Shown here: positions 7,900-56,223 of the stretch, piece by piece | How positions within the stretch are numbered: position 1 is the first letter of the stretch | Layout of the letters: every line of letters starts with the position of its first letter | Assembly (NCBI GenBank): GCA_014905635.1 | Contig: CM026547.1 | Span: forward strand, 4,092,001-4,156,000 | Source: Scenedesmus sp. PABB004 | Lineage: Eukaryota | DNA length: 64,000 nt | Reading direction: 5' to 3' | Notes under the pieces: generated by a model | Seen by the model: only the letters and a program-made list of their open reading frames with translations | Told to the model about the DNA's origin: nothing | The model's database searches: none | Program-made: the position numbers and the translations under genes

Positions 7900-15749
<7,850 letters not shown>

Positions 15750-45918: not shown

Positions 45919-47106
45919 CGCCGCGGCCGCGGCCGCCGCCGCGGCCTCGTCCGGCTTGGGCAGCTGGTTGAGGATCTTCTGCAGCAGCGCCGCCACGCGC
46001 TGCAGGTCGGCCTCGTCGTAAAACCAGATGCCGTGGATCTACGCGGCGCGAGGGCGCAGCAGCAGCAGCGGCGGCGGCAGCGGCGCGCAGCGTTTCGACG
46101 GAGCGCAGCGGGCCGCCGCCAACGCCACCGCCGGCAGCCGCTGCCGCGCCAGCCCCGCGCCGCCGTTGGGCTCCCGACCCCGCCGCCGGTCGCTGGCAGC
46201 GGGGACGATCTGCTTGACGGAGCCCCCGGTCCGTCCGTCAAGCACACCGCGGCCTCCCGCTGCCGGCGACTGGCAGGCGCGGGAGGGCGCCGCGCTGCCC
46301 CGCTGCACGCTGCGTCGGCCGCTCGCGAGCCCCGCTGCCCGCCGGCGCCGCCGCACCTCGTCGTTGCCGTGCGTGTACATCAAATACGGCGCGTTGGTCT
46401 CCATCTCCAGGCCGCCGTGCACCGGCTCGACGTAGTTGTCTGCGGCGGCGGCCGGCGCCGGCGGGGCGGCGGCGCGCGTCGGCGGGCCGCGTGCGCGGCT
46501 GGGCGCCCACGCAACGTCCCGCGTCGCGCCGCCCACCTGTGCTGAGCTTGTTGAGCACCAGCATCTGGAAGCGCGGCTGCGTGCGGCGCTTGATGAGGAA
46601 GAGGGAGCCCTCGATGTTCTTGCGTTGCTGCGCGGAGCAGCGGCGCGGCGCGGGCGCAGCGCGACGCGGTGTGAGGCGCGCGCGGGCGCCGGCGGCCTCC
46701 GCCGCGCACGCGCGGCTCGCGCACGCACCCACTGCTGCGTGTAGATGCCCATCTTGTACAGGCACACGTGCGCCGCGGAGGCGATGATCTGGCGCGCCGC
46801 GCGCGGGCGGCGGCAGCGGCGCAGCAGCGGCGCGTCAGCTGCCGGCGCCCCTGGCGCGCGGGGCGAGCCGGCCGCCCCTGATCCGGCGTGCCGGACGCGG
46901 ACGCGGACGCGGACGCCCGCTGCCCCCGGCACCGGGGGCCCCAGGGCCGCGCCCGGGCGGCGCGAGCGCGGGATGCCGCCTCGCGCGCGGCGCACCTCCT
47001 CTATCTGGCTGTCGATGCGGCGCAGGACGGTCATGTTCATGTCGTTGGCCTTGCTCCGGTCCAGCACGGGCGCGCCCTGCGCCGCGGCCTGCTTTTTGCT
47101 CGCCAT
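44888..47106 (-). CDS. DCP1: mRNA-decapping activator DCP1, 7 exons
   Basis: EVH1-like domain MNMTVLRRID..I..SAAHVCLY..W.RKNIEGSLFLIKR..PRFQMLVLNKLS...IHGIWFYD, and C-terminal trimerisation helix KTALIRLANNDAFVDAL. Confidence 0.93.
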
Positions 47107-47447: not shown

Positions 47448-47452
47448 TTACA
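47448..47452 (-). promoter_or_regulatory. TGTAA polyadenylation signal candidate for secreted protein A
   Basis: ttaca on the + strand, ~155 nt 3' of the stop at 47606. Confidence 0.55.
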
Positions 47453-47605
47453 GGCCCGCGGAGCACAGGCCCCGCCAGCCTGGCGTTCGTGGCGCCACCA
47501 GCGCGCGTCTCCGCGCGCGACCCCCGCCCCGAGGCACGCCCCCGCGCGGCAGCTCAGCAGCCGCGCCGCCGCCTACTAGGTCGCACAGAGGCGCCACGAC
47601 CATGC

Positions 47606-49215
47606 TCACTGCTTGCGGCGGCCGTAGTACCCGCCGCCGCCGCCATAGTAAGGCGCGCCGCCGCCGCCGTACGCCGGCGCGCCGTACTCGGTGACCGTGG
47701 GGTCGTAGCCGCCGCCGCCGTAGCCGCCGCCGTAGCCGCCGTTTGCGGTCCCGCCGGCGTCGCTGGAGCTCCAGCCGAGGCCTGGCAGAAAGTCGCCAAG
47801 GCCGCAGAAGCCGAGCACGACCGAGGTCGCCTGCGCGCGCGAGAAGCTCTCCGCCACGCCCGGGCCGCACCGCGCGCGCGCCTGGGCGCGCGCCTCGCTC
47901 AGCACGAGGCAGCCGCGCGAGTCGGTCGCGAGCGCGACCGCGTAGGCCGACGCCCACGCGCTCGCGGTGCTGCCGCCGGCGCAGAACGCCTGCGCGGTCG
48001 CCTCGGCGACCGCGGCCTGGCCGTCGCCGCCGCCGGCGATGGCGGTCGCGATGGCCTGCCCGTACGCGTAGCGCGTCGGCGCGCCGCCCGTGGCGATGGC
48101 GTTTGCGACGGCGCTCGTGAACTGGGGCATGTACCGGTCGCGCCGCGCCGCGACAAAGGCGCTCGACATCGACCGCGCAAAGCCCGGCACGTGGCCGCTG
48201 TTGACCGCGAGGTCGGCGGAGCGCTGCAGCAGCCACGGCGCGGCGCGCGGCGTGCGCACGGTCGTCTCGGCGACGGCCTCGCCGATCGCGACCGCGTCGC
48301 CGCCCTCCGCGGCGGCGCCCGCGACGGCCTGCGCGGCGCTCTCGCCGCGGCCGCTCGCGTACGCCTGGCCGAGCGCCTCGGCCGCGGCGCGCGAGTTGCC
48401 GCGGCGGCGCAGGTCGCGCGCGAGCCCGCCCGCCTCGCCCGTCAGCGGGATGGGGCGCGCCGCGACGCGGCCGAACTGCTGCGTGTCGCGCAGGAGCGGG
48501 TCGAGAACCTCGCGCGAGCGCGCGGGCCGGCCGCCGCCGGCGGGGCCCTCGCCCCAGGCGCCGACGGGCCGCGCCTGCCCGCCGCGCCCGGGCTGGCCGG
48601 GCTGGCCGCCGGCGGTGCCCGGCACCAGGCCGCCCACGCCCGGCGCGGACGAGGCGGGGCTGCCGCGGTTGTTGTTGTTGTTGTTGCTGTTGCTGCTCGG
48701 GCCGCCTGGGCGCCCCAGGCCGCCCCAGCGGGGGTTGGGGTTGCGCCCGCCGCCCCGGCCGCCGCCGCCGCCGCCGGCGCTGGTGCTGCCGTCGCCGCTG
48801 CCGCCGCTCGTGCTGCCGTCGCCGCCGCTGGTGCTGCCGCTGCCGTCCTGGGGCTGCTGCCACGCCGGGCGCCCGCCGCCGCCGCCGCCGCGCACGGGGA
48901 TGATCGAGCCCGGCCGGTTGGCGCGGACGGCGTCGGCGATCGGCGTCGCGCCGATGGGCGTGGGCTGCGGCGCGATGACCACGGGGTCCACACGCCGCCC
49001 GCCGCCGCGCGGGGGCGCGCCGAGCCAGCTCGGCACGCCTCCGCCCTGGCCGCCGCCGCGCTGCGGGCTGCCCCAGCTCGGCGCGCCGCCGCCCTGGCCC
49101 CCGCCGCGCTGCGGGCTGCCCCAGCTCGGCACGCCGGCGCCCTGGCCGCCGCCGCCGCCGCCGTTGCCGCCGCCGTTGCCATTGCCGCGGCCGCCGTTGC
49201 CGCGGCCGCCGTTGC

Positions 49216-49246
<31 letters not shown>

Positions 49247-49525
49247 CTGCTGGCCGCTGACCGGCATGAGCCAGGGCGGCGTGGCGGCGGGCGCGCCGCT
49301 GCTGGTTGAGGGGCTGCCCCAGCCGCCGCGGGAGCCGCCCGAGCTCCCACGGTCGCCGCCGCCGCTGCCGCCGTCGTTGCCGCCGTCGGGGGTGCTGCCC
49401 CAGCCCCGCTGCTGCGCGGCGTCGGCCGCCGCGAGCACGCGGCCTCGCAGCAGCCGGTCGCCGCGCGCGCCCGCCAGGCACGCCAGCAGCAGCAGTGCTG
49501 CGGCCAGGCGCGTGAGGCGCGCCAT
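47606..49525 (-). CDS. Secreted Gly/Trp-rich protein A with an Ala-rich 4-Cys domain (unknown family), intronless, 639 aa
   Basis: Signal peptide MARLTRLAAALLLLACLAGARG, three PSWGSPQRGGGQGGG-type repeats, Ala-rich domain shared with its neighbour, Gly/Tyr-rich tail ending GYYGRRKQ. Confidence 0.85.
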
Positions 49526-50722
49526 CCCTGCTCCTGCGCGTCAGGGCGGGCGGCGCGGCGAGCGTCACCGGTGCTGCGTTCGACCTCGCCGCCGCTGCCC
49601 TTCCTGCCGGGGCGCGCGCGCAGGGAGACAGCCTGGCGCAGCTGCTTCTTCACGCAGCTGCTGCCATCAGCGGCGGTACCGCGGGCTGCTGGCAGCCAGG
49701 CTGGCCCCGCTGGCGCTGCGGGAGCTGGGCATCCAGCCCGTGATGCGCAAGGCCCGCCGGCGCGCCGCCGGCTCACCGTGCGCTGCCCGGTCAAACGCAC
49801 CACCGAATCACAAGCGTCCGCGATGCCCCGTCGACGGACCAGGGAGGCAGCGCGCCTGCCAAGCTCGAGCGCGGGCTGCTGGCCGTGCGCTGCGCCCGGC
49901 GTGCTGGCGGGGCTGACAGAAGAGCGGAGGACCGGGAGATCGATGCCGGGCCGGCGGCGCGGCGGCGCATTCATGCGGCGGCGGCGGCGGAAGGACGGGA
50001 GCGGCCGCTCGTCACGAGCAGCTGCGGGCGGCTGCGCTTATGCGCCCGCAGCCCCCGCGCGCTCGTGGCGCGGTCGTGGCGCTGGTTCTGGTTCACAAGC
50101 GATCTCGCGCAGTCCGTGCAGCGAGCGCGGCAACGGCGGCGAGCGCGGAAGCAGCGTGCAGCTCTCGACCGCGGCGGGTGACCTGGTGACGCCAGCTACC
50201 CCGACGTCCCCCTGCCCTGGCCCAGCTCCCAACCGGCCTCCCCTGCCGCCAAGGCACGCCGGTCGCTCGCGGCTGGGCGCATTGAGGTTGGGTTACCAGT
50301 CTGCGTCGCCGTCGCCCAACCATCAGCCGCCGCGGCCGTGTGCGCGCGTCCCGAGGGGCTGCTGCGCGCGGCTGCTGCTTCTGCAGCAGCAGCTGCGTGG
50401 GGGTGCGTGATCAATCAACGGGGGGTCAATGGACATGCCGACGCGCGCGCGCGCGCCGCGTGTGGACGCGGCCGCGTCAGCGCTGCACAGGCACACGGCG
50501 GCGTATGTACAGTCTCGCTGGGAGGTGATGCCTCTGCGGCAACCGTCACTAGGGGTCACTACGCACTTAGGGGTCACTACGCACTCCGCCGCCGCGTCAG
50601 CAGCCAGTCAAAGCCCGGGGCGCGCCCCCCGCATGCGCGCCCGGGGCGCGCCGCGGGCGCCCGCCTTGCTCCCCGCCCGTCCGAGCCCGGAGCCGTCACA
50701 CGCGCGTGGCGAGGCGCCCGCG

Positions 50723-52575
50723 TCACGCGCGCCCCGCCCCCTGGGCGGCGCCGAGGCCGCCGTCCGTGCTGGTGCTGCCAGAGTTGCCGCCGCTCCAGCT
50801 GAAGTCGGGGAAGCTGCCGCCGGGCATGAAATCCAGCAGGCCGCAGAAGCCCAGCACCAGCGACGTCGCCTCGGCCTTGCTGACCGCCTGCGCCGCGCCG
50901 GCGCCGCACTGCGCCTGCGCCATGGCCTTGGCCTGGTTGAGCACCAGGCAGCCCTGCGCGTCCTGCCCGAGCGCGACCGCGTACGCCGATGCCCACGCGC
51001 TCGCGGTGCTGCCGCCGGCGCAGAACGCCTGCGCGGTCGCCTCGGCGACCGCGGCCTGGCCGTCGCCGCCGCCGGCGATGGCGGCCGCGATGGCCTGCCC
51101 GTACGCGTAGCGCGTCGGCGCGCCGCCCGCGCTGATCGCGCCCGCGACGGCGCTCGTGAACTGGGGCAGCGCGCGGCGCTCGCGCGCCACCACAAAGGCG
51201 TCCGCCATGGTGTCGGCAAAGCGGTCAGTCTGGCCGCGCGTGACGGCGTAGCCCGCCGACTTGGCCAGCAGGTCAGACGCGACCTCGGGGTGCTTCGTCG
51301 CCGTCTCGGCCACCGCCTCGGCCGCGGCGGCCGCCTCGGCGCCGCCGCCCGGCACCGTCGCGGCGCTCGCGACCGCGCGCGCCGCCGCGTCGGCCTGGCC
51401 GCTCGTGTACGCGCGCGCGAGGCTGTCGGCCGCGCCGCGCGCGTTGCCGCGGCGCCGGATGCCCTGCGCCAGGGGCGCCGCCGCGCCGGTAACGGGGATG
51501 TCCTGGCGGCGCACGCCGCGATAGCTGGCGACCTGGGGCCCCGTGAGCTGGTCCAGCGCGGCGCGGTCGCCGCGGTTGTAGCGCCACGCGCGCCCGCCCT
51601 GGCCGCCCCAGCCCTGGGCGCCGCGGGGCGCCGCGGCGCCCCAGCCGCCCCAGCCCTGGCCGCCGGCGGGCGCCGCGCCGCCCCAGCCCTGGCCGCCGCC
51701 GGGCGCGCCGCGGCGGCCGAGCGCGCCGGGCGCGGCGACGCCCTGCGCCGCCGGCGCGCCCCAGGCGCCCGCCTGCTGGGGCTGCTGCAGCTCCAGCGGC
51801 TGCTGCTGCTCCAGGGGCTGCTGCCCCCAGCCGCGGCCGGGCGCCGCGCCCCAGCCGCGCGGCTGCTGCTGCTGCTGCCTCAGCCCGCGCCGGCCCTGCG
51901 GCGCCTGGGTCCACGCGAACGAGTTGGTCGGCCGGCTGCCGTAGGCGCCCTGGCGGCCAAAGGAGGAAGCGGACATGCTGTAGCCCCGCTCCTCATCCAC
52001 GATGGGAGGGTTCATCGCCATCGCCGGCCGGGCCTGCAGCAGGCTGCGCCGCGCGCCGCGCAGCGGCACGGCGCCGCCGTGCGCCGCCGCCGCGCTCACT
52101 GCGGGGCGGGCGGCGCCGGCGGGTGAGCGCGCGGCGCGGCGGCCGGCGGCGGGTCGCGGGGTCGTCGCCGCCGGCCCGCCGCCGCCCCGCCGCGCCCAAC
52201 CCCCCGCCGGCAGCTCCCCGCCCGCCTCGCCGGAGGCCCGCGCGCGCGCCGGCGGCTCACCGCTGCTGGCGGCCAGCAGCCCGAGCAGGCAGGCCGCCAG
52301 GGCGGACGCCGGGGCGTGCCGGCGGCCGGGTGCCGCAGGCGCGCGTCTGCGGGCAGGCGAGCAGCGGCGGCGGAAGGTGCTCAGCTGGTGACACCGCGCG
52401 GCAGGCCGCCGTCGGCGACGGGGAGGTGCGCTGCATCACTGTGTGCGCGTGGCCGCAGCCCGGCGGCACGGGGGCGCGGGCGCGCGCGCGCAGGGCCGCC
52501 CCCGCCGAGTCAATCGCCCGCCCAGGACCGCCCGGCGCCGCTGCGGGGGCGCCGATCAGCTCACCGGTGGCTCAT
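50723..52575 (-). CDS. Secreted Gly/Trp/Gln-rich protein B, tandem paralog of A, 3 exons
   Basis: Exons 52575-52565, 52346-52261 and 52098-50723 join in phase to give MSHRRAP...ASALAACLLGLLAASSVSAAAA (signal peptide). GQGWGG repeats and the same Ala-rich 4-Cys domain. Confidence 0.8.
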
Positions 52576-53143: not shown

Positions 53144-54705
53144 TCAGTCCCACCCGGGCTCGCTGAGCGGCATGCGCACCAGCGCCGACATCAGCGGCGC
53201 CGCGCCGCCGCGGCCCAGCACGACTACGCGCAGCGCGCCCGCGCCGGCCGCCGGCTGCAGGCACGTGGCGTCCACCTGGCGGCGGCGGCGGCGGCGGGGT
53301 GCGGCGGGGCGCTCCGGTGGCCGGCCGCGGGGCGGCGGCGGGCCTGCCCGTGCGCCGGCGCCCCGGCTGGGCGTCGCCGGCTGGCAGGGCCGTGGCGGCC
53401 CGGCGGCGGGCCTGCCGCGCTGCGCAGGCGCTGCCCGACAGCCCCGGCGGCGCCGCACCTTGAGGTCGTACTGCAGCGCCGGCACCAGCGCCGGCACCAG
53501 CAGATGGGGGCCGTGCACCGCGTACGCGTCACCGCCCTGCACCACCACCTGCAGCCCGGTCGCCAGCTCCGCGCCTTCGTTGGTCAGGCTGACGACCAGG
53601 CGGAAGCGCGGGCCCAGGCCCTGGACGGCGGCGCTCATGGACAGCTGCGCCGCGGCCGCGTGCGACGCAGCGCCTTGCGCGGCGCGGGCGCGTGGGGCCC
53701 GCGCGCCCGCGCCCGCGCCCGCGCCGCCGTGTCCGCTGGCCCCCCCAGCGCGCTGCCGCGCGCGCACCTGGCCGTCGGTGAGCGCGCGCACGCACGCGCG
53801 CGCCGTCGCGAGGCGCAGCTTGCAGAGGTCGCGCTGGAACGCGCGGTGCATGTCGACGCCGCCCTCACGCTCGCGCGCGCACTGCTCCACGTAGAGCCGC
53901 GTCTTCCGGGGCACGTCCAGCGGCACGTCCTGCTCCGGCGGCGGGCCCGCCCCGCCGCCGCCGCCGCCGCCTGCGCCCGCCGCGTCCAGGTTTGCCGTGC
54001 GCGGCAGGATCTGCGCGCTTCAGGCGCGGCGGCGGCGGCGGCGCGGGCGCGTTGGAGCGGGGAGGGGGCGGGCGGCGACCGGCAGACAGCTGGCCGAGCG
54101 CGCGCGCGCGCGCGTGCACCGAGGCAGCCGTGCGGCGGGCGGGGCCCCCCTGGCCGGCGCGCCTTTATGTCCAGCCCGCCCGCGGCGGTGACGGCGACGA
54201 GGGAGCGCTCCTCGCGCGCGTAGCGCCCCGCGCACAGCCCCGACACGGGGCTGGCGCTCACGTGCAGCGCCACGAGCGCGCGGTCGTTGTACAGCCGGAC
54301 CTCGCCGTTGGCCAGCGCGGCCACGACGCAGCGACACGGCCGCGGCCCACCGCCGGGCAGCGCCTGCAGGCACAGCACCGGCGCCGGCACGCGCAGGCTG
54401 TACAGGCGCGCGCCCTTGGCGCTGTACGCGTGCAGCGCGTCGCCCATGGTCGCGACGACGACCTGCTTGGCCAGCCGCACCTGCACGCCGCGCGGCGCGG
54501 GTGCCGCGTTGGCGGGCAGCACACGGGCGGCACGGGCGCGGCGCGCGCGGTGCGCGGGGGCGCGCGCGGTGCGCGGGGGCGCGCGCACCACGCCCACGGG
54601 CTGCGCGTCGAGCTGCACCGCGCGCCTGCTGAGCGCGCCGGCCTTGACGCTGTACAGCCGGCCGTCGCGTGCGGCCACGCTCACGCGCCAGCCCCCCGCC
54701 GCGTC

Positions 54706-54736
<31 letters not shown>

Positions 54737-55783
54737 GCCGTGGCGAGGAAGGCCGGCACCGCCGGCAGCGCGACGGCGCGCTCGACCGCGGTGCCGGCGG
54801 CGTTGAGCACCAGCAGGCGGCAGTCCTCGGTGCCCAGCACGAGCCGGCTTGTGGCGCCGGGCTGCGCGGCGGACAGTGCGGCGGCACGGGCGTGGGGCGC
54901 GGCAAGGCGCGCCGCGCGCGCCTTGCGCGGGCGCCGCCACGCGAGAGCCGCTGGCCTGGCGCACCTCGTCGCTGTCTGCCACCACGTCCATGCAGGTGAT
55001 GCAGGACAGCCCCGCCTGGCCGCGGCTGCTCGCCGCAAAGCCCGCCCGCTGCTCCGGCGCGGCGGCCAGCAGCCGCCGCGAGCGGCCGCCGAGCGGCGCG
55101 CCGCCGTCGAGCTGCTGCTGGAGCTGCGCCGCGCCGGCGGCGGCGTCGAGCTCGCCCGCGTCCACCTGCTGCCTGCGCGGCGGGGCAGCGGCGCGGCGCG
55201 GTCGGGCGCGGCCGCTGCGCGCGCCGGCGCCGCGGCGCGCGGCCGGCGCACCACACGGCGTCCTCCGCGGGGCTGCTGTCCGCGGGCGGCAGCGTGAACC
55301 GGTAGTGTGGCCGCAGTGCGCGGAACATGTAGACGTGCGGGCCCGCCGCAACCGCGAGCGTCGGCATGCGCGGCGGCGACGCGGCGGGCGGGAGGAAGCT
55401 GGTCACCGCCGTCGGCGCGTCGAGCAGCGCGTGCTCCGAGGCCTTGGCGGTGCCCCTCCACACCTGGCAGCGCGCGCGCGGCAGCGCGGCGTGGCGCGGC
55501 GGGGCGCGCGCTGCGGCGGCGGCGGCGCAGGAGCCAGCGCCGGGGCGTCCTGCGCCCCGAGCTCGCGCGGCCTGGCTGCTGCTCGCTCGCTGGGGTGTCC
55601 AGGTCTGGCGGCGCAGCCCACCTTGAGCTTCTTGTCGGCGTCGGCCACGACCAGGCGCCAGTCGCCGTCGCCGAGCAGGTCGCACGTGTGCACGCAGCTG
55701 AACGCGCGCAGCCCCGCGACCGGGTCCGCCCAGGCGTCCAGCCAGACCTGCCCGCACGCCGCTCGGCCGGGAGAGTCGGCCAT
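53144..55783 (-). CDS. BBS1: Bardet-Biedl syndrome 1 protein (BBSome subunit), 8 exons
   Basis: WLDAWADPVAGL..CDLLGDGDWRLVVAD..KLKVWRGT, LAVAAGPHVYMFR.LRPHYRFTLP, GRYAREE, LDIKILPRTANL, PLDVPRKTRLYVEQ..RERE..MHRAFQRDL.KLRL. Confidence 0.95.
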
Positions 55784-56223
55784 GCTGCGTCCACTGCCGG
55801 GCCTGCGCGGTTGCTGGCCACGCGCCGATGCTGCCCGCGCGCTGGCGGCGGTGGCGCGCTGCTGTCGCCGCCCGGGGCGGCGCAGGCGGCGCGCCGACTT
55901 GCGGGAGGTCGCAACGGAGAGTGTTTCAACGGGCGCGGCGAGCCGCGGCGTGCGGGTGCTTCTGGCCGGTCAAGCAGCAGATGCGCCGCAAGACTGGTCC
56001 CGCCCAGCCCTCGCGAACGCGGAAACAACCGGGTCTGCACGCACGCCGGCGCTGCACGCGAGCGCAAGCGCGAACACAACGCCGCGGGGGCCAGGGCGGC
56101 CTGGGCCGCGCGCTTGCGCCCTGGCCGCCGCCGCTGCCCGCACCCGCGCCCGAGCGCGGAGCGCCGGCGCGTGCGATGGCAACGAGGTGATGTACAGTCA
56201 GTGCAGCGCAACAGAAACGCCAT

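Follow-up and report, generated by a model that had tools for sequence, protein, structure and literature searches.

In some classes of plant glycine-rich cell-wall proteins (GRPs) the C-terminal part is rich in Cys, and the hydroxyproline-rich glycoproteins (HRGPs) and pherophorins of chlorophytes are built from low-complexity rods and globular domains and often form tandem families. The terminal domains of spidroins are five-helix bundles. At basic RKLL and RRLL sites subtilases free the secreted pectin methylesterases of plants from their pro-regions, and AtPME17, which has a putative RKLL motif, is processed by SBT3.5 (excerpts of PMC7694680). Large secreted proteins of Chlamydomonas, ending in -GRRR or -GR, were found to be amidated after carboxypeptidase trimming, and a Gly(K/R)n end marks out 24 proteins as predicted substrates of peptidylglycine alpha-amidating monooxygenase (PAM) (excerpts of PMC6919629). 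Here we describe two adjacent genes, A and B, on the reverse strand of a 64,000-nucleotide stretch of DNA from the green alga Scenedesmus sp. PABB004 (GenBank assembly GCA_014905635.1, contig CM026547.1, positions 4,092,001 to 4,156,000); this whole stretch is referred to below as the window. The pair belongs to a real, conserved, lineage-specific family whose helical domain is predicted with confidence but defies classification. A and B are tandem paralogues within this uncharacterised family, and we put at about one in two the probability that its members are secreted, modular pro-proteins acting in the wall or extracellular matrix, where the domain would dock or assemble and the Gly-rich segments would cohere or cross-link.

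Two genes share an Ala-rich domain with four invariant Cys

The products of A and B are related through a single block. BLASTP aligns residues 359-595 of A with residues 201-445 of the B open reading frame (ORF), with 150 of 245 positions identical (61%) and an E-value of 2e-46, and the tandem pair with its common domain lies where an earlier reading of the DNA letters (the sequence-only reading) had placed it. Outside this block the two proteins share no alignable sequence, and their Gly-rich regions are unrelated. A tblastn search of the whole window with the domain recovers two copies, with bit scores of 523 and 282. The third-best match scores 58 bits, and the others show mostly 25-35% identity over long stretches, with higher values only in short ones; matches at or below 58 bits are compositional noise, an Ala-rich reading of GC-rich DNA.

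Each protein contains exactly four Cys residues, all in the domain, plus one in each signal peptide. The four columns are invariant in alignments of 18 and of 21 family members, which upholds the claim that they are conserved, and the motifs GCLVL and VLGFCG are invariant alongside them in both alignments. All four contexts (AFC-x-GG, GCLVL, A-x-C-G and VLGFCG) occur in both window proteins, and the invariant Cys of B are residues 193, 217, 231 and 252 in the numbering of the structural model of 50792-51598. In the secretory pathway the four Cys probably pair as two disulfides. Ala makes up 25-29% of the domain and Gly 11-13%.

Gene A reads from ATG to stop as a single unbroken ORF (Table 1). 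Its N-terminus is hydrophobic, with the highest 10-residue Kyte-Doolittle mean (2.87) at residue 9, as expected of the signal peptide that the sequence-only reading had assigned to both proteins. The region that follows (residues 23-334) is 35% Gly, 11% Pro and 10% Ser and holds nine Trp, mainly as xWG, and the tail behind the domain is 41% Gly and 17% Tyr, in agreement with the Gly/Tyr tail claimed for A.

The structure of gene B is less direct. The ORF at 50723..52099 (-) is listed with a GTG start that is the first codon after an acceptor site, and the hydrophobic frame upstream (52346-52261) contains no ATG. A start at 52575 works only through a putative three-exon model, which would encode 490 residues uninterrupted by a stop, hydrophobic around residue 20 (Kyte-Doolittle value 2.65); the B signal peptide thus stands only by way of the first two, putative exons. 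Relatives on metagenome contigs often begin at a conserved internal Met immediately after the position of the RSLLQ motif of B, which fits a separate signal exon, and full-length relatives have a signal-like N-terminus ahead of the corresponding motif, which backs the same arrangement. In the N-terminal region of B, Gly accounts for 22% of the residues, Ala for 18% and Gln for 14%, and of the nine Trp ahead of the domain most stand in a GWG context. The sequence-only reading had described Gly-rich regions with periodic Trp in both proteins; the Gly-richness and the recurrence of xWG (nine in each) hold, whereas strict periodicity is confined to a 48-nt repeat in A.

Family distribution and predicted fold

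No Pfam-A family matches A or B in hmmscan at E<=1, and searches of Protein Data Bank (PDB) chain sequences by phmmer and with the family profile return nothing at E<=1. At E<=0.01, 24 of 25 longer relatives likewise show no Pfam match. The exception is P0049 (Scenedesmus sp. PABB004, KAF8063763.1, 1423 residues), which has a PHD-like zinc finger at 28.8 bits, just below the Pfam cut-off. The finger lies downstream of a truncated domain copy that lacks the last three invariant Cys, in a protein with long low-complexity sequence, and from this layout P0049 is probably a merged gene model and not a true fusion.

A word-index search found 16 relatives at 47-74% identity. When 1.84 billion representatives were searched exhaustively with a family profile, the family count proposed by the sequence-only reading came to 196 representative clusters at E<=1e-3, with 121 at E<=1e-10 and 36 at E<=1e-30; many are fragments, and E-values reach as low as 1e-155. 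A further word-index search with an alignment of distant members returned two of the query members and added nothing. Names were looked up for 30 of the 196 clusters, and the 11 that carry an organism name are all from Sphaeropleales. They comprise Scenedesmus sp. NREL 46B-D3 (two proteins), Scenedesmus sp. PABB004, Tetradesmus obliquus, Flechtneria rotunda, Enallax costatus, Raphidocelis subcapitata, Monoraphidium minutum (two proteins) and Chromochloris zofingiensis (two proteins). The taxonomy of six species was looked up and assigns them to three families of Sphaeropleales (Scenedesmaceae, Selenastraceae and Chromochloridaceae); the two Scenedesmus strains were placed by genus name. So far as these sequences reach, a distribution restricted to Sphaeropleales is the current picture and not a proven limit. 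Every named relative is annotated as "hypothetical" or "uncharacterized" which, with the empty Pfam and PDB sequence searches, agrees with the proposal that the family is uncharacterised. Two of the entries, those of Flechtneria and Enallax, derive from transcriptome assemblies and hold complete ORFs, and relatives of the pair are therefore transcribed.

The sequences closest to the window proteins are from Scenedesmaceae, with 70-74% identity to B; A shares 45% identity with the Raphidocelis protein. In a tree of 21 domain sequences A and B fall inside an 11-row clade together with the Scenedesmus sp. NREL 46B-D3 proteins. The order of A and B within it is not resolved (A groups with P0005/P0006, support 83/46), and the duplication is therefore not dated. 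Clustering of paralogues recurs in the family: the two NREL 46B-D3 proteins, whose accession numbers differ by two, are encoded on one 356-kb contig, and a single 7.8-kb metagenome contig carries both P0014 and P0015. A metagenome scan yielded one locus (L001), with a single P0018-type gene among unrelated-looking neighbour ORFs; no shared neighbourhood was seen there, the neighbour ORFs not having been scanned against family libraries.

These homologues also bear on whether the genes are real. The GC content of the window is 0.72-0.85 in 2-kb windows, and because it is so extreme, long open frames occur on every strand and in every frame. Spurious ORFs of 510-706 residues overlap gene A in other frames and on the opposite strand (47448-49916); long overlapping frames of the region include, for example, one of 706 residues at 47448-49568 (-) and two of 606 and 608 residues on the plus strand, and at 78-85% GC the length of an ORF is by itself worthless as gene evidence. 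The many overlapping frames are what would be seen if A and B were chance open frames of 78-80% GC DNA, but homologues, transcriptome-derived ORFs included, exist for the two named frames only, and this refutes the idea. The GC content at third codon positions (GC3) is moreover 0.97 in the A and B frames, with a lower value at second positions, and the domain is modelled with high confidence; that the genes are artefacts is barely conceivable.

The structure of the B domain was predicted by AlphaFold2 (AF2) with the 18-sequence family alignment. The model is compact and all-helical, with 15 helices, a mean predicted local distance difference test score (pLDDT) of 86.7, a predicted template modelling score (pTM) of 0.84, and 192 of 269 residues at a pLDDT of at least 90. 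A model of full-length A shows the same domain, with 10-residue block means of 87-98 over most of it; the alignments used for the two models overlap largely, and the models are not independent. Residues 24-332 and 578-639 of A are almost wholly below a pLDDT of 50, and the Gly-rich parts of A are accordingly predicted to be disordered.

A Foldseek search of the predicted domain against the PDB, the structure search that the sequence-only reading had suggested, found no characterised family and no other match at E<=1e-3. Its best rows are designed armadillo repeats, with E of about 0.06 and a template modelling (TM) score of about 0.2. The ESM Atlas gave no usable match to the window domain, and the neighbours of the relative P0006 there are TPR/HEAT-like only, with TM scores of at most 0.41. 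The models thus predict a compact stack of 13-15 short, Ala-packed helices, alpha-solenoid-like and with no identifiable relative. A complex prediction with two copies of the B domain scored 0.00, which speaks neither for nor against binding.

The sequence-only reading had called the domain silk-like, of the spidroin type, and on that view it would self-assemble into a fibre with the Gly-rich segments as amorphous spacer. What favours a silk is composition, namely the Ala and Gly content of the domain and its Gly-rich flanks; a Gly/Tyr tail could also permit dityrosine cross-links. The predicted fold does not bear the description out, being a compact globular helical stack, with unique, non-repetitive motifs and the four invariant Cys. 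Spidroin_N and Spidroin_MaSp are among the Pfam families with no match at E<=1, and comparison of five segments of the alignment against each other by hhalign gave internal repeats a probability of at most 28%. A silk-type domain is therefore very improbable. The fibre-like composition is confined to the flanks, and the Ala-rich part is predicted to be a folded, Cys-stabilised globular module. An ice-binding or antifreeze function of the Ala-rich helices was also considered and was dropped when no evidence for it turned up, no dedicated search having been made.

Candidate processing sites and a proposed extracellular role

A basic motif, [RK]xLLQ, occurs in 23 of the 183 family members fetched, against 0.89 expected from shuffled sequences (maximum 4 in 200 shuffles). 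Its carriers include P0010, P0012, P0013, P0016-P0018 and P0079, and the variants in the family include RKLLQ, RRxLLQ and RSLLQ. It lies at residues 18-112, just behind the signal peptide, and nearly always once, with one protein having two. A relaxed pattern yields 33 distinct contexts, and in 22 of them at least one of the three preceding residues is Gly, giving a fuller form (L)G-R-(R/K)-x-L-L-Q. By its sequence and place the motif looks like a pro-peptide site for a convertase or subtilase. It is also found behind the domain, near the C-terminus of Raphidocelis GBF89828.1 and in P0125, and between partial domain copies in P0039.

Some distant members have a layout resembling that of a polyprotein. 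In P0039 a single frame runs from the last part of one domain through an RKLAQ site and a stretch rich in Gly and Asn into a second, largely complete domain, and P0138 has three RK(L/M)(L)Q sites behind its domain. As judged from these sequences, such proteins could be multi-unit precursors or gene calls that read through across tandem genes.

Among Met-starting relatives of at least 250 residues, 29 of 61 have a hydrophobic N-terminus; several of the other 32 begin at a conserved internal Met and are truncated gene calls. At the opposite end, 38 of 68 members terminate in G[KR]1-3, often with Trp before it, where about 1% would be expected from the composition of the tails; the 68 are the members in which the last-Cys motif is retained and followed by eight residues or more, and some of them are near-identical cluster mates. 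Several other members end in W-G-x-K or in Gly. Together the [RK]xLLQ motif and the Gly-Lys/Arg ends point to proteolytic maturation, possibly with amidation of the C-terminus; the plant and Chlamydomonas cases cited above are analogies and do not count as evidence for such processing in this family.

The family might be one of processed, C-terminally amidated, secreted signalling or recognition pro-proteins, in which a convertase and a carboxypeptidase would expose a terminal Gly for amidation by PAM. The enrichment of G[KR]1-3 tails, the basic motif behind the signal peptide with its preceding Gly, and the amidated proteins and predicted substrates of Chlamydomonas mentioned above are all in its favour. 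The window proteins, on the other hand, have variants in place of a clean G(K/R)n end, G-R-R-K-Q in A (47609-47623) and G-R-A in B (50726-50740), and the most conserved part of the family is the 240-residue domain and not the termini. Amidation is also compatible with a matrix role. We consider a signalling or recognition function of this kind quite unlikely.

Under the wall or matrix reading that we prefer, the family proteins would have five parts in order: an endoplasmic reticulum signal peptide, a short pro-segment ending at [RK]xLL(Q), a disordered, fast-evolving region rich in Gly and aromatic residues, the domain of about 240 residues, and a short Gly-rich tail. After removal of the signal peptide a subtilisin-type convertase might cleave at the basic site before the protein reaches the wall or extracellular matrix. 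In that setting the folded domain would dock to a conserved partner, either a wall component or another copy of itself, and the disordered Gly/aromatic segments would make multivalent cohesive contacts, possibly with oxidative Tyr/Trp cross-links. The combination of a Gly-rich region, a Cys-containing domain and a Tyr/Gly tail matches known secreted plant glycine-rich wall proteins in kind.

Several observations weigh against this interpretation. The processing site of A is degenerate, present only as DRLLR, and the signal peptide of B depends on an unverified 11-nt first exon in a model whose first two exons are putative. A search of sequencing runs lists no RNA run for this organism. Six family accessions are absent from Table S1 of the maternal cell-wall proteome of Scenedesmus obliquus (PMC11839794), so that the wall proteomics proposed by the sequence-only reading gave no support in this one small table. 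Neither A nor B contains an SPP, PPSP or SPSP motif, as had been noted from the sequence, nor an N-x-S/T sequon; SP dipeptides number four in A and none in B. The absence from the proteome table and the missing glycosylation motifs are weak but real evidence against a wall role. Helical-repeat domains, furthermore, are usually binding scaffolds and not structural units, and a soluble binding role suits the fold equally well. The proteins would then be soluble and secreted, with the domain holding a ligand (a glycan, lipid, wall-polymer precursor, metal or protein) and the Gly-rich region as a spacer, and might be protective, nutrient-scavenging or defensive; we regard this alternative as unlikely, albeit one to be taken seriously. 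The matrix, binding, amidated and silk readings are not mutually exclusive.

Two freshwater-metagenome DNA runs match the window over small shares. A few short contigs agree with it exactly or almost exactly, among them three with 0 differences over 508 nt (49495-50002), 158 nt (51927-52084) and 151 nt (52279-52429), and the rest is low-complexity noise. None of the contigs spans a gene, and they are uninformative on gene structure or expression; the matches suggest that the same or a near-identical alga is probably present in fresh water at low abundance. Searches of main-text literature found no paper joining Scenedesmus, "cell wall" and "alanine-rich", and none naming Rsub_02532, COO60DRAFT_1521418, HT031_003620, KAF8063763, Cz05g25200 or Cz02g01050. 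The last two, which are Chromochloris identifiers, are absent also from the supplement of PMC12853952 (636 characters).

A bolder proposal would join the matrix role to amidation. A and B would then represent a new, Sphaeropleales-specific class of extracellular pro-proteins with a hitherto undescribed, disulfide-locked, Ala-packed alpha-solenoid, released at G-R-(R/K)-x-L-L-Q and trimmed and alpha-amidated at the C-terminus, in which condensate-like assembly, driven by the aromatic Gly-rich region, forms a wall layer or a glue between cells. We advance this only tentatively and think it improbable as a whole. If true, PAM-type amidation would reach beyond the ciliary peptides of Chlamydomonas and take in large proteins of the matrix or of recognition in green algae that are coccoid or coenobial.

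The walls and matrices of Sphaeropleales such as Scenedesmus, Tetradesmus, Monoraphidium and Chromochloris matter in biotechnology, for harvesting, flocculation, cell disruption and coenobium formation and are almost unknown at the protein level. A conserved, multi-copy family that has no Pfam model offers a domain that could be registered as a new family and a handle on the wall and secretome biology of the order. The [RK]xLLQ site and the Gly-Lys/Arg terminus provide predictions that mass spectrometry can test directly, and the two genes lend themselves to tagging or knock-out in relatives that can be transformed. Should its function stay unknown, the family would be one more lineage-specific orphan.

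Genomic surroundings and known systems

The features of the pair and of its surroundings are collected in Table 1. The DCP1-like and SNF2-type neighbours are ordinary nuclear housekeeping genes with introns, on the same strand as the pair, and no functional cluster is apparent among the DCP1-like, BBS1 and SNF2 neighbours. The presence of a BBS1 gene indicates that ciliary genes persist in this coccoid-type, Scenedesmaceae-like alga, where they presumably serve a flagellate stage. The 18-bp direct repeat in the spacer between A and B is unusually AT-balanced for the window and could be a 3'-untranslated region (3'-UTR) or promoter element.

Table 1. Coordinates of genes A and B, their parts and other features of the window. 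TRF, Tandem Repeats Finder; CDS, coding sequence.
Feature	Position	Strand	Basis
Gene A CDS, single exon with stop, 639 aa (P0001)	47606..49525	-	ORF, translation, GC3, homologues
A, signal-peptide-like N-terminus, ~aa 1-22	49460..49525	-	Hydropathy; lone helix 2-20 in AF2 model
A, low-complexity Gly/Pro/Ser/Trp-rich region, aa 23-334	48524..49459	-	Composition; predicted disordered
A, 48-nt tandem repeat, 2.7 copies, 16-aa unit (V/A)PSWGSPQRGGGQGGG	49025-49155	-	TRF score 234, 92% matches
A, Ala-rich 4-Cys helical domain, aa 335-577; Cys 515, 539, 553, 574	47795..48523	-	BLASTP against B; pLDDT; Cys columns
A, Gly/Tyr-rich tail, aa 578-639, ending G-R-R-K-Q	47609..47794	-	Composition; pLDDT <50
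Intergenic spacer A/B (B 3' flank, A 5' flank)	49526..50722		ORF coordinates
Perfect 18-bp direct repeat in A/B spacer, 2 copies, unit TAGGGGTCACTACGCACT	50550-50585		TRF
B, putative exon 1, ATG + 8 nt, 11 nt	52565..52575	-	Sole in-phase ATG/donor combination found; weakest part of model
B, putative intron 1, 218 nt, GTGAGC...CCGCAG	52347..52564	-	Splice model
B, putative exon 2, signal-peptide hydrophobic core	52261..52346	-	Splice model; Kyte-Doolittle 2.65
B, putative intron 2, 162 nt, GTGAGC...CGCAG	52099..52260	-	Splice model
B, putative exon 3 with stop: RSLLQ motif, Gly/Gln/Trp-rich region, domain, short tail	50723..52098	-	ORF, splice model
B, RSLLQ motif	52036-52050	-	Motif scan
B, Ala-rich 4-Cys helical domain	50879..51568	-	Confident part of AF2 model of window 50792-51598
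DCP1-like mRNA-decapping gene, downstream neighbour	46039-47106	-	Pfam DCP1, E 2e-7
BBS1 (BBSome, ciliary trafficking) gene, upstream neighbour	53147-56223	-	GAE_BBS1 E 3.9e-20, BBS1 E 4.5e-7
SNF2-type ATPase exons, farther off	11164-12945	-	SNF2-family

Of the fold types compared, the alpha-solenoids of ARM/HEAT proteins (TELO2 in 7ole_K and the designed armadillo 5mfe) are the most resembled, with scores at or below the noise among helical proteins. Those proteins reside in the cytosol or nucleus, have no conserved Cys and are 7-16% identical in sequence to the domain described here. Pfam Arm, HEAT and their relatives have no match in A or B, and no sequence repeat periodicity is detectable. 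Spidroins resemble the pair superficially in joining an Ala-rich helical module to Gly-rich disordered sequence. There is, however, no match to Spidroin_N or Spidroin_MaSp, long poly-Ala/GGX arrays are lacking (the only array in A is the one of 2.7 x 48 nt), and the domain is a large globular stack of 13-15 helices, unlike the terminal domains of spidroins.

HRGPs and pherophorins are secreted, modular matrix proteins, as the pair is proposed to be, and share with it the tandem arrangement of genes, although A and B have no SPP, PPSP or SPSP motifs and no Pherophorin or other Pfam domain. Plant pro-pectin-methylesterases, with RRLL/RKLL sites cleaved by subtilases, likewise place a basic-x-Leu-Leu between an N-terminal pro-part and the mature protein (excerpts of PMC7694680). 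The analogy is one of motif only: cleavage in the present family is putative, its pro-part is very short, and nothing else relates the two groups of proteins. The PAM substrates of Chlamydomonas (Cre03.g204500 and Cre12.g487700; excerpts of PMC6919629) are large secreted proteins with low-complexity regions, basic cleavage sites and G(K/R)n ends, and form clustered families; they were compared by description only. That ending is shared by 38 of 68 members of the present family, whereas the window genes carry an extra residue after the basic run. With plant GRPs the pair has in common a signal-like N-terminus (putative in B), a Gly-rich region with aromatic residues, GGY/YGG in the tail of A, a Cys-containing C-terminal part and a presumed role in the extracellular matrix. 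The resemblance is one of architecture; the two differ in that the conserved unit here is a 240-residue, 4-Cys helical domain with no Pfam counterpart, and in that the Gly-rich regions are rich in Trp, Gln, Asn and Pro and vary between paralogues.

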